From an uncultured Gammaproteobacteria bacterium (lineage in GTDB: Bacteria > Patescibacteriota > Microgenomatia > UBA8517 > JACQJR01), in contig CAYIKF010000003.1 of NCBI GenBank assembly GCA_964363945.1, forward strand, positions 5,693 through 38,869: a DNA stretch of 33,177 bases, read 5' to 3'. The notes under the pieces were generated by a model. That model was not told where the DNA came from. It was given only the letters and a program-made list of their open reading frames with translations, and searched no databases. The translations under genes and the position numbers were made by a program. Positions 7,199 through 19,519 of the stretch are shown in pieces (the first letter of the stretch is position 1; each line of letters opens with the position of its first letter).

Positions 7199-8365
7199 TT
7201 ACACTGAATTATATACACGAAGTGTTTCTTTCGCCATATTTTGCCATGAGAATTGTTGGGCTCTTTTCTCGCCCTTTTCCACCATTCTTCGATGTTTCGA
7301 GTCATCAAGGCGCAATACTTCACCTATTTTTTGAGCAATATCACCAACATTGTAAGGATTAAAGTATGTTGCGGCATCACCGTAAATTTCATGGAAGACC
7401 GGAATATCAGAACATACCACGGGGCACCCTGCTGCCATTGCTTCAAGGCCAGGCAAACCGAATCCTTCAGATAAAGATGGAAAAACAAATGCTTTCGCGT
7501 TTTTATAAAGCAGTGCTAACTCATCATCAGGAACGAATCCTAAAAAGTTCACAAAAGAATCAGCTTTGATTTTGTTAACATATTGTATTAATCGGGCAGT
7601 GAAAACATTCCGTGCACTCACGATAACTAAATTGATATGCAATTGTTTTACTGCACTAATAAGTCTTTCTAAATTTTTATGCGGATACGCACTTCCTGTA
7701 TAGATAACGTAAAGTTTATTTATTAATGAATATTTATTAAGGATTTTCTGTGATTGGTGATTGCCGCCCTTGGCGAGCCTCGCCTTCGGCGGGGTGATTG
7801 GTGATTTGAAAGAATCGTCGATTCCTTCATAAATAACCGTCACCCTCTCTTCATCTAATCCATACTCTTTCAGCAACTCCTCCTTCACTGCTTGACTTGG
7901 AACAATGATCTTTCTAGCCTTGTGTACTGCATTGCTAAATACCATCTTATATCCTGTATACTTTAGCCAATAAAGAAACGGCGCACGTGTTGTGGTTGCG
8001 GATCCCCGGGAAGTATGTTTTATTAAATCATGAATTGTGACAACAAATGGGCGCTTAAAAAAAAATGGTACATTAAAGTGAGGGAAATGGGCCAAGTCGA
8101 AATCTAAATTATTCAAAATCTGAGGAAGTCTAATTTGTTCTTGAAAACTGTAATGAGGACAATCTGGTTTGATAATTTCCATTTTCCATTTTCCATTTTC
8201 CATTGATTTTCCAATTTCTAATTTTTCAATTTGTGAATTATTAACCAAAACCACATGCTCATTCGCTGTATCTACAAGTTTCAGTTGACCAACCAAGTTC
8301 ATCACGTATCTGCCAATACCTGCATGTTCTAGTCCATACATTCGTGCATCAATAAGTATCTTCAT
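7199..8365 (-). CDS. GT4-family glycosyltransferase (start moved to Met25 of the track ORF)
   Basis: Canonical GT4 N-terminus MKILIDARMYGLEHAGIGRY begins at 8365, which avoids overlap with the upstream gene ending at 8380. C-terminal block FPSLSEGFGLPGLEAMAAGCPVVCSD ... FSWQNMAKETLRVY. Confidence 0.85.
   Translation of the reverse strand: MKILIDARMYGLEHAGIGRYVMNLVGQLKLVDTANEHVVLVNNSQIEKLEIGKSMENGKWKMEIIKPDCPHYSFQEQIRLPQILNNLDFDLAHFPHFNVPFFFKRPFVVTIHDLIKHTSRGSATTTRAPFLYWLKYTGYKMVFSNAVHKARKIIVPSQAVKEELLKEYGLDEERVTVIYEGIDDSFKSPITPPKARLAKGGNHQSQKILNKYSLINKLYVIYTGSAYPHKNLERLISAVKQLHINLVIVSARNVFTARLIQYVNKIKADSFVNFLGFVPDDELALLYKNAKAFVFPSLSEGFGLPGLEAMAAGCPVVCSDIPVFHEIYGDAATYFNPYNVGDIAQKIGEVLRLDDSKHRRMVEKGEKRAQQFSWQNMAKETLRVYNSV
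7750..7807. repeat. copy 1 of a dispersed GC-rich hairpin element nested between GTGATTG heptamers (putative miniature mobile element), inside a GT4 ORF
   Basis: 7757..7806 is 48/50 identical to 17702..17751. The core 7764..7792 is CCGCC-CTT-GGCGAG-C-CTCGCC-TTC-GGCGG, a two-stem hairpin. Flanking GTGATTG GTGATTG lies at 7750-7763 and GTGATTG GTGATTT at 7794-7807. Confidence 0.9.
8176..8204. repeat. perfect tandem heptamer array TTTCCAT x4 inside a GT4 ORF
   Basis: Read directly. CC dinucleotides recur at 8179, 8186, 8193 and 8200. Degenerate CCAATTT / CTAATTT units follow. The array encodes MENGKWKME. Confidence 0.92.
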
Positions 8366-17243: not shown

Positions 17244-18410
17244 TTATTTTAAAATCCTTTCTAACACCTCTAATGTTTGTTGGGCTGCTTTTTGCCAGTC
17301 GAAGAGTTTGGTGCGCTCTAAGCCTTTTTTGGATAATGCGTCATAATTTTTAAGAGCCTCTTTTATCCCACGAGCAATATCTCCTGGATCGTCGGGATTC
17401 ACTAAAATTCCTGCATCTCCCACAACTTCAGGCAAACTTCCGACAGTTGAGACGACAACCGGTGTTCCTACTGCCATTGCCTCAACTACTGGAATTCCAA
17501 ATCCTTCCCAAAAACTAGGCAAGACAAAAACTAGAGCTCCTGCCATGAGAAGCGGCACATCATCATCTGGTATAAAGTCAGTAAAAACCACTTTATCCCG
17601 AAGGGGCAAGCTCCGCTTATCTTCTAAATCTAATTCTTTTACTTTTTTGAAAATTGATTCATATAACCAACCCTTTTTACCGGCAATAACAAGAGTGATT
17701 AGTGATTGCCGCCCATGGCGAGCCTCGCCTTCGGCGGGGTGATTAGTGATTAGTGAGAAAGCAGTCAGCAAACCTTCAATGTTCTTACTTGGTTTTAGCG
17801 TACTCAGAAAAAGAATATAATCATCTTTAATGTTGTATTTTTTCTTTACTTCTCTAATTTTAATTTTTGATATTTGATTTTTAAATTTATTTTTATCGTA
17901 TCCCGGATACGTAACCGTTATTTTTGAACGTGGAATTTTGTAATACCTGATAATGTCTCTTTTTGTGCTTTCTGAAATAGCAATGACGTGGTCTGACTTT
18001 TTAATAGAGTGGGCTGTCCAAGAAGTTAATTGGTAAAGATCGCGGCGTGTAAATTGATCGGGGTATCGCAAATACCCAAGGTCCATTATTGAAACAACTG
18101 TCGGAATAGGTGACCAACGAGGACGATAATGCCCTGGGGTAAAAAATACTTCGGGTCTTGGCTCGGCAAAAAAAAGAGAAAGAGGAAGCGCAAATTGAGT
18201 CCATAAACGCTTAGGGCCGAAGACTTTATATTTCCACCATGAAATTTCTTTGGGCATGTCAGGAAGGGGAGTATCACGTAAATAAATCATCCACTCATGT
18301 TTTTTTGCCTCTGGCAAGTTATACAAAGCATGGAGAAGTTCAAACGCATATTGGTTTGATCCAACACGCCGTTCTACATTTGCTTCATTGCCATCAACGC
18401 CGATTATCAT
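17244..18410 (-). CDS. GT4-family glycosyltransferase
   Basis: 388-aa ORF. MIIGVDGNEANVERRVGSNQY N-terminus, C-terminal block LPSFWEGFGIPVVEAMAVGTPVVVSTVGSLPEV, and tail FDWQKAAQQTLEVLERILK. Confidence 0.85.
   Translation of the reverse strand: MIIGVDGNEANVERRVGSNQYAFELLHALYNLPEAKKHEWMIYLRDTPLPDMPKEISWWKYKVFGPKRLWTQFALPLSLFFAEPRPEVFFTPGHYRPRWSPIPTVVSIMDLGYLRYPDQFTRRDLYQLTSWTAHSIKKSDHVIAISESTKRDIIRYYKIPRSKITVTYPGYDKNKFKNQISKIKIREVKKKYNIKDDYILFLSTLKPSKNIEGLLTAFSLITNHPAEGEARHGRQSLITLVIAGKKGWLYESIFKKVKELDLEDKRSLPLRDKVVFTDFIPDDDVPLLMAGALVFVLPSFWEGFGIPVVEAMAVGTPVVVSTVGSLPEVVGDAGILVNPDDPGDIARGIKEALKNYDALSKKGLERTKLFDWQKAAQQTLEVLERILK
17695..17759. repeat. copy 2 of the dispersed GC-rich hairpin element nested between GTGATTA/GTGATTG heptamers, inside another GT4 ORF
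   Basis: GTGATTA GTGATTG + CCGCCCATGGCGAGCCTCGCCTTCGGCGG + G + GTGATTA GTGATTA GTGAGAA. It is on the same strand as copy 1 but is read in a different codon phase. Confidence 0.9.
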
Positions 18411-18427
18411 ATATTAATGCATGATAA

Positions 18428-19519
18428 TTACACTACACTCCGATATACTTCTAATGTTTCCCTTGCTGCTTTCTCCCATGAGAACTGTTTTACTCGAGCC
18501 AATCCTTTCTTAATGAATTCTCCCCTTTTGGAAAGCACGCGTTCAATCCCTCTTCTTATATCATCAACATCCTCCGGGTTTACCAAAACTGCCGCGTCCC
18601 CTGCTACCTCGGGCATACTTGAGATGTTAGACGTTACTACCGGACATCCGCACGCCATTGCTTCTAAAATTGGCAAACCAAACCCTTCGTATAGGGAAGC
18701 GTAAATAAGCGCTTGTGCACCACTATAAAGTGCGGAGAGTTCGCTTCTTGAAACATGACCAATCCACAAAATATTGTCCCGCGGAGCGGGATCCTGCTTC
18801 GCGGGATGCGACCACCTTTTTCCCACAACAACCAATGGCGGTGCATCGGGAATGAGTGTAAGTGCTTGAGCTACATTTAATAGATTTTTTCGCGGATCTG
18901 CTCCTACTGCAAGCAGGAAATGCCGTGGAAGACCAAATTTCTTTTTTACCTCCCCTACCCTCTTATCCCCTACTTTTCTATAAATTGCATCCGGCGCCTC
19001 ATACACTACTGAAATTTTTTCCGCCGGAATTCCCAAATAAGTTATGATGTCATTTTTGGTAGCTTCCGATACTGCTATCACCCGTTCACATTCTCTCTTT
19101 ACCCACTTAAGCTGTCTTTTGTGTACTGCAATAATCTTAGGATGTGAACTCTCTGGGTATAAAAGCGGCACTAAATCATGCACTGTAGTAACCAGTTTTG
19201 CTTTTCTTGATGGTGGTTGTGTCCAATTAGAAGAATGGAACACATCAACCGAACCCACAAAATTTTCAATTGGAAAGATGTGAAGCCGATTCCATAAAAG
19301 GTCAAGCATCATTGGAGATAAAGGATAAAACTTTTTTGTGAAATTACCTGAAAGGTCCTTGCTAAAATGATTTAAATCAGGCAAACGGCGCATGGCACCA
19401 CCGAAGAGGAAATACTCATCTTTTTTATCAAACGAGAGGAGTGCGTGTACCAAATTCCTTGTATACCACGAAACGCCAGTCTCATAAACTATTTGCGAAA
19501 TATCTATTCCAATCTTCAT
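18428..19519 (-). CDS. GT4-family glycosyltransferase
   Basis: 363-aa ORF. MKIGIDISQIVYETGVSWYTRNL N-terminus, block ASLYEGFGLPILEAMACGCPVVTSNISSMPEV, and tail FSWEKAARETLEVY. Confidence 0.85.
   Translation of the reverse strand: MKIGIDISQIVYETGVSWYTRNLVHALLSFDKKDEYFLFGGAMRRLPDLNHFSKDLSGNFTKKFYPLSPMMLDLLWNRLHIFPIENFVGSVDVFHSSNWTQPPSRKAKLVTTVHDLVPLLYPESSHPKIIAVHKRQLKWVKRECERVIAVSEATKNDIITYLGIPAEKISVVYEAPDAIYRKVGDKRVGEVKKKFGLPRHFLLAVGADPRKNLLNVAQALTLIPDAPPLVVVGKRWSHPAKQDPAPRDNILWIGHVSRSELSALYSGAQALIYASLYEGFGLPILEAMACGCPVVTSNISSMPEVAGDAAVLVNPEDVDDIRRGIERVLSKRGEFIKKGLARVKQFSWEKAARETLEVYRSVV
18777..18806. repeat. 30-nt GC-rich near-perfect palindrome embedded in-frame in a GT4 ORF
   Basis: TCCCGCGGAGCGGGATCCTGCTTCGCGGGA. 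The outer 7-bp stem is TCCCGCG/CGCGGGA. The inner arms pair with two G-U positions around a GATC loop. It encodes PAKQDPAPRD. Confidence 0.85.

Follow-up and report, generated by a model that had tools for sequence, protein, structure and literature searches.

The stretch of DNA analysed here (the window, 33,177 nucleotides) carries a minus-strand gene for a GT4-family glycosyltransferase of 363 amino acids (18428..19519; Pfam Glycos_transf_1 and Glyco_transf_4). Embedded in this gene is a 30-bp palindrome at 18777..18806, TCCCGCGGAGCGGGATCCTGCTTCGCGGGA on the plus strand, whose exact sequence occurs only once within the window. From its sequence, fold, family membership and covariation it is assigned to a family, here called family D, that consists of two adjacent 15-nt mini-hairpin units. 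On the plus strand, unit 1 (18777..18791) reads TCCCGC-GGA-GCGGGA, a 6-bp stem whose GGA loop belongs to the d(GCGNAGC) mini-hairpin type, and unit 2 (18792..18806) reads TCCTGC-TTC-GCGGGA. TTG, the preferred left flank of the family, lies directly 5' of the element at 18774..18776 (plus strand). The element falls within a 66-nt patch (18777..18842) that distinguishes the window from the allele of a strain ~97% identical to it along most of the gene, where 69 other letters, including a mini-element of another family (family E), take the place of the patch.

The first-pass annotation of this DNA described a GC-rich palindrome able to form a hairpin of about 13 bp with two G-U pairs and a GATC loop. 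Folding of the plus strand agrees with that description, giving 13 contiguous pairs around a GATC loop, with G-U (G-T in DNA) pairs at 8-23 and 12-19. The predicted energy of -24.4 kcal/mol compares with a mean of -11.1 for 200 shuffles (z -5.5), none of which is as stable. On the minus strand, which corresponds to the mRNA, both wobbles become A.C mismatches and the fold amounts to -17.5 kcal/mol (z -2.9), or to a z of -1.3 when 10-nt flanks are included. The GC-richness was also correctly recognized: G+C accounts for 22/30 positions (73%) of the 30-mer, against 44.5% in the surrounding 1 kb and 42.9% genome-wide. Hairpins with at least 10 Watson-Crick pairs, at least 8 of them G-C, are found at only four places in the 646-kb genome.

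The element adds exactly 30 nt and leaves the host ORF intact. It was annotated as ten in-frame codons for PAKQDPAPRD, which is right in length and in the peptide encoded, but the insert is not codon-aligned: it runs from the third base of a His codon to the second base of the final Asp codon (CA[T CCC GCG AAG CAG GAT CCC GCT CCG CGG GA]C, read as (H)PAKQDPAPR(D)). Ortholog alignment and AlphaFold2 assign it to residues 239-248, in a loop between the strands at 229-233 and 250-254, in keeping with the loop-before-strand position first proposed. The AlphaFold2 model has a mean pLDDT of 91.9, with residues 239-246 as the only segment below 50, and places the peptide in what is predicted to be the sole disordered loop of the enzyme. 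This loop is hypervariable, ranging from 0 to 14 residues among orthologs, and removing the element in silico gives ...SHNILW, the state of orthologs P0004 and P0012.

The palindrome had been suggested to represent a second family of miniature inserted palindromes, a proposal upheld by further copies within this genome, among its relatives and at many other loci, and by empty sites for two other host genes. A scan of the collection, with one genome per species, returned at least 118 loci with the 30-bp consensus TCCCGC-RRA-GCGGGA followed by TCCCGC-YYY-GCGGGA, against a chance expectation of ~0.3 by our own estimate; the search pattern left out positions 1-4, and copies often come from related genomes, such that the counts are not independent. 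The genome search for the palindrome that the annotation had recommended yields three family copies in this genome (G000), and other hosts carry the family at 1-7 places each. A pattern search across 139 genomes of the order detected the family in G000 (two copies), in the CysRS gene of G001, and in G002 and G061; the control gave 0 hits. Among the matches listed, most copies belong to candidate-phyla-radiation (CPR) bacteria, and single copies are present in Ignavibacteria, Bacteroidetes and Acidobacteriota; every host is a metagenome-assembled genome. Three ORFs at the Ignavibacteria locus returned no Pfam match.

The window sequence agrees at 29/30 positions with copies that distant organisms carry in unrelated genes, and is one transition (C19T) away from copies in other lineages, for instance L033, L046 and L088. 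Position 19 is C in 115/118 family copies (among the matches listed); the T found here produces the T.G wobble of the plus strand, the A.C mismatch of the mRNA strand and an R-to-Q change in the peptide, which otherwise follows the recurring PAKRDPAPRD frame of the family. No GT4 ortholog conserves the decapeptide, and the palindrome recurs elsewhere, the reverse of the single occurrence with a shared decapeptide that the annotation had named as fatal to its proposal. Over 18773-18814 the word depth increases 7- to 80-fold in 3/4 groundwater metagenomes (X6 having no flanking baseline) because many other contigs carry the element. A scan of 2.9 million viral contigs with the family pattern returned 0 copies, so no vector is evident, and with just three copies this genome gives no sign of current activity.

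Variation among the copies points to a structure other than the 13-bp hairpin initially described. Pair 3-13 is C-G in 58, T-A in 41 and A-T in 7 of 118 copies among the matches listed, and positions 1-4 complement positions 12-15 even though they lie outside the search pattern. In the register of the long hairpin, 49 copies have A.C at pair 13-18, and the loop pair 8-23 shows no correlation; this 13-bp register is broken in most family members (again among the matches listed). The covariation thus indicates that the conserved structure is a pair of adjacent 6-bp mini-hairpins with 3-nt loops, not a single 13-bp hairpin. The RRA loops are of the d(GCGNAGC) type on one strand, with the complement loops on the other. 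This mini-hairpin is a described DNA motif (PMC13037366), recognizable here as GCGGAGC in unit 1 (plus strand), GCGAAGC on the mRNA strand and GCGTAGC in the sibling copy at C1:29959. It is, however, a structural motif and not a genetic element, and about a quarter of the family D copies among the matches listed have A instead of G as the first loop base.

The genomic contexts of the family are equally diverse. Among the matches listed, 61/120 copies reside inside ORFs of 150 aa or longer, where each of the three frames and both orientations are represented, and others occupy intergenic DNA and pseudo-tRNA fragments. Since copies are read in three frames and both orientations, half of them inside ORFs, family D appears to be conserved at the DNA level and not at the protein level. 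The unit has no stop codon in any frame, and the peptides it encodes, such as SREAGSRSAG, PRSGIPLRG and PAKRDPAPRD, are small polar or Pro/Gly/Arg-rich. TTG stands directly 5' of 35/118 copies (30%), compared with a background of 3.4%; per-position counts in this left flank are T 64, T 79 and G 62 of 118, and 44/117 flanks give a heptamer-repeat signal versus 3.4 in shuffles (all among the matches listed). Elsewhere 7-bp tandem repeats often enclose the family, as they do the element at 7750/17695 of the window, but the copy at 18777-18806 is without them, as was seen from the outset. The usual 3' flank is A-rich (NAA), not T-rich, and a terminator role as a property of the family was rejected for this reason. 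An association with tRNA-Ser comes from copies inside or beside truncated tRNA-Ser fragments; descent from the variable arm or T-arm of tRNA-Ser was considered and discarded because the loop sizes do not fit. Rfam 15 gave no match up to E = 1 on 18650-18950, and only tRNAs on 16 family loci.

Filled and empty sites can be compared for two siblings of the palindrome. In a GT2 gene of this genome (G000:C1:40672-41439), a 30-nt element encoding SREAGPRSAW is missing in 9/9 orthologs, including one of the same genus at 88% identity. Another GT2 gene, C1:29369-30325, contains a clean 33-nt insertion between 22 upstream and 8 downstream identical bases. It is missing in seven orthologs and is accompanied by no target duplication, a result that comes from this one fully clean filled/empty comparison. 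Judged by these alignments, both siblings in this genome were cleanly inserted, one as 30 nt and the other as 33 nt. For the CysRS copy, comparison of G001 with G000 revealed no clean gap, G000 having a different stretch of similar length.

A simple gap in orthologs, the check proposed with the first description, was found at the two sibling sites (30 and 33 nt) but not in GT4, where the closest alleles contain another element. P0121/L154, whose nucleotide identity is ~97% along most of the gene, shares with G001 a 39-nt loop whose core, CCCTCCTCCGCTAAAGCTTCGGATGGGC, represents family E, itself dispersed (34/401 genomes of the class, 0 control hits). D and E both follow directly after ATATTG on the plus strand, at the same nucleotide position. 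As a sister species and a near-identical strain bear another mini-element at the same point, the GT4 loop is a recurrent landing pad. Across the patch joint (18776->18843), 66 letters are skipped and 69 lie between, and one edge of the patch matches the left end of the palindrome to the base.

For this last step it is a real possibility, if not quite a probability, that the GT4 copy was imported by homologous recombination as a ~66-nt patch from a diverged allele already containing D. Identity between the window and the X5 strain is 97-100% along most of the gene but drops to 44/60 and 40/60 in the two 60-column alignment blocks holding the patch, and the differences reach 33-36 nt past the element, into the PPLVVVGKRW codons. 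Against import, no donor allele was found, and the one boundary that equals the element end to the base fits an event at the element and a crossover equally. With no clean empty site and a divergent patch extending 36 nt beyond D, in-situ insertion and patch import are not separable. Patch import concerns the last step only and is compatible with the palindrome being a family copy.

With family membership, double-hairpin covariation, two sibling filled/empty sites, alternative occupancy and loop location established, the palindrome is very probably a copy of a selfish, dispersed family of DNA-level mini-insertions, family D, and has no function specific to the GT4 gene. Copies would arise at unrelated sites, with a preference for the position just 3' of TTG and often within 7-bp tandem repeats, and would persist within genes as harmless surface-loop peptides. 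Their persistence can be attributed to the 10-codon length, the lack of a stop codon in any frame and the harmless, small polar or Pro/Gly/Arg-rich peptides; in GT4, the element would be tolerated because it is 30 nt long, stop-free and located in a loop. Spread may proceed via a hairpin in single-stranded DNA that is recognised by a trans-acting enzyme.

By comparison, a functional RNA or DNA signal for GT4, whether as a translational pause between domains, as an intragenic attenuator or as a site for an RNase or a protein, is very unlikely. The fold is strong on the antisense strand, and a loose terminator pattern, of which the region has 3 sites versus 1.1 expected, fits the second mini-hairpin of the mRNA strand together with the CAAUAUUUUG that follows it. 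Yet folding of the mRNA strand is weak (two A.C mismatches; z -1.3 when flanks are included) and there is no Rfam match, the closest strains manage without D at the GT4 site, and family copies occur in both orientations, all frames, intergenic DNA and pseudo-tRNA fragments. The mRNA-pausing role entertained in the first-pass annotation is not supported either, the hairpin being the weaker on the mRNA strand. That the palindrome arose by chance, or as a protein motif under selection in the GT4 loop, deserves hardly any credence: a hypervariable loop of 0-14 residues could hold almost any sequence, but 0/200 shuffles fold as well, the peptide is conserved in no ortholog and 29/30 positions match distant copies in unrelated genes. 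An assembly or library artefact common to metagenome assemblies is just as implausible. All hosts are metagenome-assembled genomes and the element is short and palindromic; nevertheless, the window allele is reproduced by independent Logan contigs of other runs (X3 record 8 equals 18684-18841 with 0 differences), family copies are also present in long-read contigs of 257 kb and 1.26 Mb, and compensatory variation, in-frame behaviour and host-specific contexts recur across many laboratories and assemblers.

Mobilisation of family D in trans by the genome's HUH Y1 (IS200/RAYT-like) transposase, which would recognise single-stranded hairpins as in REP/RAYT or IS608, is unlikely. G000 encodes a Y1_Tnp protein at C11:18289-18981 (Pfam 40.5 bits versus a cut-off of 23) whose best NCBIfam match is REP-associated tyrosine transposase, although this match scores 37 bits against a cut-off of 80. 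Y1_Tnp is present in 16/21 relatives, with 1-8 copies each, and the two hairpins, the conserved 5' flank and the lack of target duplication at one clean comparison resemble an IS200/IS605-like logic. However, 20/20 Y1 genes in four D-rich genomes have no D within ~1.5 kb, and Y1_Tnp is absent from 2/6 D-bearing genomes, including a complete 0.63-Mb chromosome. Y1 genes are instead flanked by their own longer hairpin repeats, e.g. TAGCCTCAAGGCC... and AGCTTCGCAAGGC..., and the flanks of 10 Y1 genes in relatives likewise contain such repeats of their own and no D; the G000 Y1 gene is at a contig end, where its own flanks are incompletely seen. On this evidence resident Y1/RAYT-like transposases are not supported as movers of D. 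Template switching mediated by microhomology or heptamers, or gene conversion, is a rather doubtful route of spread, and an agent outside both Y1/RAYT-like transposases and template switching or gene conversion seems reasonably probable as its driver. Instead of mobility, a function, through constraint by a conserved partner that binds the element, could also account for the near-identity of copies across phyla.

It may be, and is put forward here tentatively, that D, E and the element at 7750/17695 form an undescribed class of mobile hairpin elements of ~30 bp. Such elements would insert beside TTG or in heptamer tracts without target duplication, displace each other at shared landing pads, enter housekeeping genes in frame and circulate almost unchanged among CPR classes, occasionally reaching Ignavibacteria, Bacteroidetes and Acidobacteriota. 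Different elements at one site in near-identical strains, together with the common TTG/heptamer context, make these elements a compact system in which hairpin-directed insertion can be studied. If this class exists, a conserved insertion machinery or a transfer route such as natural competence would be implied. Copies this short and this similar in different phyla pose the question of their transfer or constraint.

If really moving, 30-bp units would be among the smallest mobile DNAs known and would generally supply the most streamlined bacterial genomes with in-frame loop insertions. The proteins of CPR bacteria are known for unexplained small inserts. D-like elements also create spurious "shared motifs" between unrelated proteins and break DNA alignments at precise points, which can mislead annotation and strain comparison.

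Several known systems resemble family D in part. MITEs have IS-derived terminal inverted repeats and a target-site duplication and usually measure 50-500 bp, whereas D is entirely palindrome and its 33-nt insertion in C1:29369-30325 is without duplication; to our knowledge, D has no parent IS. The ends of IS200/IS605 elements (IS608, ISDra2) each form a hairpin, and these elements insert beside a short conserved sequence with no target duplication. Family D shares the two hairpins, a 5' flank (TTG), the absence of target duplication (at the one clean comparison) and, presumably, action on single-stranded DNA, but its hairpins abut within a total of 30 bp, TTG is preferred only statistically (30%), and a cognate transposase was not found.

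REP/REPIN sequences are G+C-rich imperfect palindromes of 20-40 bp associated with RAYT transposases (PMC3116915, PMC3733652). They are extragenic, number tens to hundreds of copies, flank their own RAYT gene (PMC3116915, PMC3733652) and bear a GTAG or CGTC tag at one end (PMC3733652). As a 30-bp imperfect palindrome of 73% GC in a genome with a RAYT-like Y1 gene, D is similar; it differs in having half of its copies in ORFs, only 1-7 places per genome and no copy beside the 20 Y1 genes of four D-rich genomes. No GTAG or CGTC tag was found in 118 D copies (among the matches listed), the ends being TCCCGC and GCGGGA. The mitochondrial DNA of fungi and sponges contains repetitive hairpin-forming elements, among them double-hairpin elements and G+C clusters, that occur also in protein-coding and rRNA genes and are regarded as mobile without a known adaptive function (PMC2800124, PMC4478555). 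Like D, they are hairpins of high G+C content, single or double, that lie dispersed in a compact, A+T-rich genome; they are organellar and unrelated to D in sequence and loop type, and the resemblance is one of analogy only.

The Rickettsia palindromic elements (RPE; Ogata et al., 2000) are listed in Table 1 of PMC3184786 and reviewed in PMC10969869; they are selfish DNA of ~105-146 bp (PMC3184786), confined to Rickettsia. Like them, D is palindromic, lies in frame within intact ORFs, is translated as an extra surface segment and inhabits a small genome. Length and hosts set the two apart, D being 30 bp, found about half the time outside ORFs, and distributed over CPR and other phyla. A further counterpart is the set of small dispersed repeats SDR1-8 of Nostoc punctiforme and its relatives, reportedly described by Elhai et al. 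(2008, Genome Res 18:1484; cited in PMC3116915). These repeats are reportedly 21-27 nt long, associated with tandem heptamers and present also in genes, some of them hairpin-forming, with mobility inferred from filled and empty sites. D differs in its 30-bp length, its double mini-hairpin, its CPR hosts with near-identical copies in several phyla and its low copy number per genome. The two have other features in common: D too is tens of nucleotides long and hairpin-forming, is recognizable by filled and empty sites, is associated with heptamer tandem repeats (although not in the window copy) and resides inside genes.

The 30-mer at 18777-18806 (TCCCGCGGAGCGGGATCCTGCTTCGCGGGA) is a copy of a dispersed element, family D, and lies in a minus-strand GT4 glycosyltransferase gene (18428..19519) of a groundwater CPR bacterium of Microgenomates type (G000; 646 kb, 66 contigs). 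Its G+C content is 73%, against 43% for the genome. The plus strand folds into 13 pairs, two of them G-U, around a GATC loop (-24.4 kcal/mol, z -5.5; 0/200 shuffles fold equally well), which bears out the hairpin of about 13 bp described in the first-pass annotation. On the mRNA (minus) strand A.C mismatches replace both wobbles and folding is weaker (-17.5 kcal/mol), with a z of -1.3 when 10-nt flanks are included. On that same strand, the second mini-hairpin (18777-18791) followed by CAAUAUUUUG (18767-18776) fits a loose intrinsic-terminator pattern, which has three matches in the region against 1.1 expected. Exactly 30 nt are added to the GT4 gene, as first described, but one base off the codon boundaries rather than as ten whole codons, reading (H)PAKQDPAPR(D). 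The left flank is ATATTG, and this copy indeed has no flanking heptamers.

The 30-mer is composed of two 15-nt units, TCCCGC-GGA-GCGGGA and TCCTGC-TTC-GCGGGA, and differs from a Saccharibacteria copy (L033), for example, by a single transition (C19T). Two relatives occur inside GT2 genes of G000: CCACGC-GGA-GCGTGG|TCCCGC-TTC-GCGGGA at C1:41215-41247, where the unit 1 changes are compensatory, and TCCCGC-GTA-GCGGGA followed by a second, different hairpin at C1:29957-29992. A pattern search of 139 genomes of the order found copies in the sister species G001 (within the CysRS gene), G002, and G061, with no control matches. Scanning one genome per species with the pattern RCRRAGCGNGNTCCYGCTYYGCGGGA recovered at least 118 loci, against about 0.3 chance matches by our own estimate (pattern ~42 bits, 1.2e12 positions); two matches, a Streptomyces and L113, lack the unit 1 stem and look like chance. 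The initial idea of a second family of miniature inserted palindromes is upheld by these relatives.

Covariation among its copies shows that what family D conserves is a pair of adjacent 6-bp hairpins, each with a 3-nt loop. Positions 1-4 and 13 were unconstrained in the search pattern, and among the copies listed from the at least 118 loci, pair 3-13 is C-G in 58/118, T-A in 41/118, and A-T in 7/118, while pair 1-15 is T-A in 89/118 and C-G in 13/118. In the long-hairpin register, pair 13-18 is A.C in 49/118 listed copies, and variation in one loop does not track that in the other (8-23); it is therefore the mini-hairpins that are kept. The 13-bp hairpin, first taken as the structure itself, arises secondarily from the head-to-tail arrangement of two near-identical units. 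One strand has RRA loops and the opposite strand YYT loops, and GAA, GGA, and GTA closed by GC/GC correspond to the d(GCGNAGC) mini-hairpin motif (PMC13037366).

Among listed copies, 61/120 lie inside open frames of at least 150 aa and the remainder are intergenic. The element is found in both orientations, and all three of its reading frames are used (SREAGSRSAG in 35, PRSGIPLRG in 17, PAKRDPAPRD in 9), the third yielding the window peptide PAKQDPAPRD, in which C19T accounts for the R to Q change. Conservation of family D is at the DNA rather than the protein level. TTG directly precedes 35/118 listed copies (3.4% background), CAA directly follows 12/118 (1.9% background), and 7-bp tandem repeats flank 44/117 (3.4 in shuffles), though p-values for these flanks are overstated because the copies are not all independent.

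By record title, the CPR hosts among the listed matches include Gottesman-, Levy-, Collier-, Roizman-, Doudna-, Magasanik-, and Komeilibacteria, Saccharibacteria, and Parcubacteria; other listed titles are Ignavibacteria/Melioribacter, Bacteroidetes, Acidobacteriota, and many 'uncultured Gammaproteobacteria'. Element-bearing records with the latter title or 'Pseudomonadales' (TPA assemblies; L071, L034, L036, L052, L082) come from genomes of 0.8-1.2 Mb, and L071 represents the locus of G061 (G061:C1:34654), assigned by genome taxonomy to the same CPR order as the window. These titles are probably wrong. The Ignavibacteria, Bacteroidetes, and Acidobacteriota hosts have genomes of 3-5 Mb with one or two copies. 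At the two Ignavibacteria/Bacteroidetes loci that were read completely, L039 (7475-7560) and L101 (2700-2910), family D sits inside truncated 5' tRNA-Ser duplicates, following GGTTG of the D-loop, and a small GIY-YIG-like ORF adjoins. In several CPR genomes (L023:1448-1538, L051, L058, L121) it lies 11-20 nt upstream of a tRNA-Ser gene, the L121 copy within a duplicate of the first 14 nt (5' end) of that tRNA-Ser. The association with tRNA-Ser is far above chance frequency. Summed contig depth over 18773-18814 is raised 7- to 80-fold over the flanks in three of four groundwater metagenomes (X6 had no flanking baseline), because many other contigs carry the element. A search of 2.9 million viral contigs returned no copies.

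Comparison with orthologs points to insertion. None of the nine orthologs of the GT2 gene G000:C1:40672-41439, that of G001 at 88% identity included, has the 30 nt (SREAGPRSAW). The 33-nt variant in the GT2 gene C1:29369-30325 is missing from 7/7 orthologs and lies between 22 upstream and 8 downstream bases identical to G001, relative to which no target duplication surrounds it. The same gene carries heptamer-coded repeats (NFQFPISNFQF); its G001 ortholog (L195, L196) has an extra insert, TRAAGIAFGDARQ, and the stop-to-stop open frame upstream of that ortholog's start contains the tandem repeat ISGACFFAGLK three times. For the CysRS copy of G001 the comparison is less clear-cut, since the corresponding place in G000 is taken by another segment of comparable length. 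Relative to G000:C2:4424-5845, the G001 CysRS (G001:C2; L022/L138) also has two more in-frame inserts, GTSAMSSVPN and EDGTFRGERSRTI.

The GT4 loop between LVVVG(K/R)xW and NILWxGHV ranges from 0 to 14 residues among 28 orthologs. Removing the 30 nt yields ...RWSH|NILW, and SHNILW is the state of orthologs P0004 and P0012. The simple 30-nt gap anticipated in orthologs is not what they show: the nearest alleles are filled by another mini-element, family E. These alleles, from the sister species G001 and from a Logan contig of a different aquifer study (L154, with protein P0121; 97-100% identical in nucleotides across most of the gene), both hold AACGCA-CCCTCCTCCGCTAAAGCTTCGGATGGGC-AAGGC at this point, with 39 nt identical between them while the rest of the gene differs by ~15%. 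The family E core (CCCTCCTCCGCTAAAGCTTCGGATGGGC) is itself dispersed; it occurs in 34/401 genomes of the class, reaching 7 copies in G206, and had no control matches. Its consensus is CCCTCCTNCGCTAAAGCTNCGGAAGGGC-AAG (L154:2123-3220; L011, G001:C1:72048-72075; window equivalent 18777-18842), usually read PSSAKASEGQG; AAG usually follows the core, which on the other strand places CTT before it. On the plus strand, AAAATATTG immediately precedes both D and E. The window has a 66-nt patch (18777-18842) against 69 nt in the strain of metagenome run X5, and one patch boundary coincides exactly with the element end; the window allele therefore arose either by an in-place swap or as a patch imported from a D-bearing allele. 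Under swap and import alike, the GT4 loop has repeatedly received mini-elements. An AlphaFold2 model built on the ortholog alignment (mean pLDDT 91.9) has its sole segment below 50 at residues 239-246, between strands 229-233 and 250-254, and predicts a disordered surface loop for the element peptide. At a different site, codons ~191-212, the G001 GT4 ortholog (L011, G001:C1) contains a 66-nt G+C-rich in-frame insert, GRRPGEASRRVGDSPESETGSE, with the internal direct repeat AGTCGGAGACT, which is missing from the window gene.

A role for the hairpin in the mRNA, as a pausing signal (the earlier option), RNase site, or attenuator, is unlikely: the sense-strand fold is weak and has no Rfam match, a near-identical strain lacks the element, family D occurs in every orientation and context, and its 3' flank is A-rich. 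A chance palindrome and protein-level selection of the peptide are both excluded by the shuffles, the lack of conservation of the peptide in any ortholog, and near-identical copies elsewhere, such as that of L033. An assembly artefact is also unlikely, as the window allele is reproduced in independent runs and compensatory variation extends across assemblies of many origins.

As for how family D moves, its anatomy is that of a strongly structure-constrained unit; together with the lack of target duplication at the one clean filled/empty comparison and the TTG/heptamer context, this favours insertion or copying that acts in trans and depends on the hairpin, or alternatively template switching between TTG-ending heptamer tracts. 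A protein resembling Y1 HUH transposases is encoded at G000:C11:18289-18981 (Pfam Y1_Tnp, 40.5 bits); its best NCBIfam match, REP-associated tyrosine transposase, scores 37 bits, under the cut-off of 80; 16/21 relatives have 1-8 Y1_Tnp genes. Such a transposase is not supported as the mobiliser, because Y1 genes are surrounded by their own longer hairpin repeats (e.g. TAGCCTCAAGGCC..., AGCTTCGCAAGGC..., TGACAGGG...), family D is near none of 20 Y1 loci in four D-rich genomes, and the domain is missing from 2/6 D-bearing genomes, including a complete 0.63-Mb Saccharibacteria chromosome. The CPR Y1/RAYT-like genes of ~230 aa (L204, L211, L212, L217, L220, L222, L192) have 3-5 hairpin repeats of 21-33 nt around them (e.g. 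TAGCCTCAAGGCCNGGCCTTGAGGCTA, AGCTTCGCAAGGCNNNGCCTTGCGAAGCT), a REP-RAYT-like arrangement, and are apparently interrupted by these repeats.

Other elements share these settings. Both window copies of the sibling hairpin element (7750-7807 and 17695-17759) have ATTG directly before the core within GTGATT(A/G)-type heptamer repeats; they come after GTGATTG, and the TTG context is shared with family D. A third full copy is at G000:C4:4890-4949. Outside the window, G000 holds two further perfect G+C-rich palindrome families, mostly inside ORFs and with some copies flanked by GTGATT-type heptamers. Family A (TCCGCCAGCTGGCGGA; ~13 copies, e.g. C1:10037, C1:19262, C2:23706, C9:2511) reads PPAGG or SASWR, and family B (CCTGCCTGCGCAGGCAGG; 11 copies plus 4 of a 36-nt version, e.g. 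C1:17125, C4:6680, C9:2201, C2:33072) is nearly always read as LPAQAG.

No account of such elements in CPR bacteria came up in literature searches. In size and heptamer association, family D matches what is reported for the small dispersed repeats of Nostoc. Those repeats (Elhai et al. 2008) are cited in PMC3116915. REP sequences are distinguished by a GTAG/CGTC tag, extragenic location, high copy number, and RAYT adjacency, features that family D does not share (PMC3733652). Mitochondrial hairpin and double-hairpin elements and G+C clusters resemble it by analogy (PMC2800124, PMC4478555). In behaviour, family D matches Rickettsia palindromic elements, which are in-frame selfish palindromes, although it is a quarter of their size (PMC3184786, PMC10969869).
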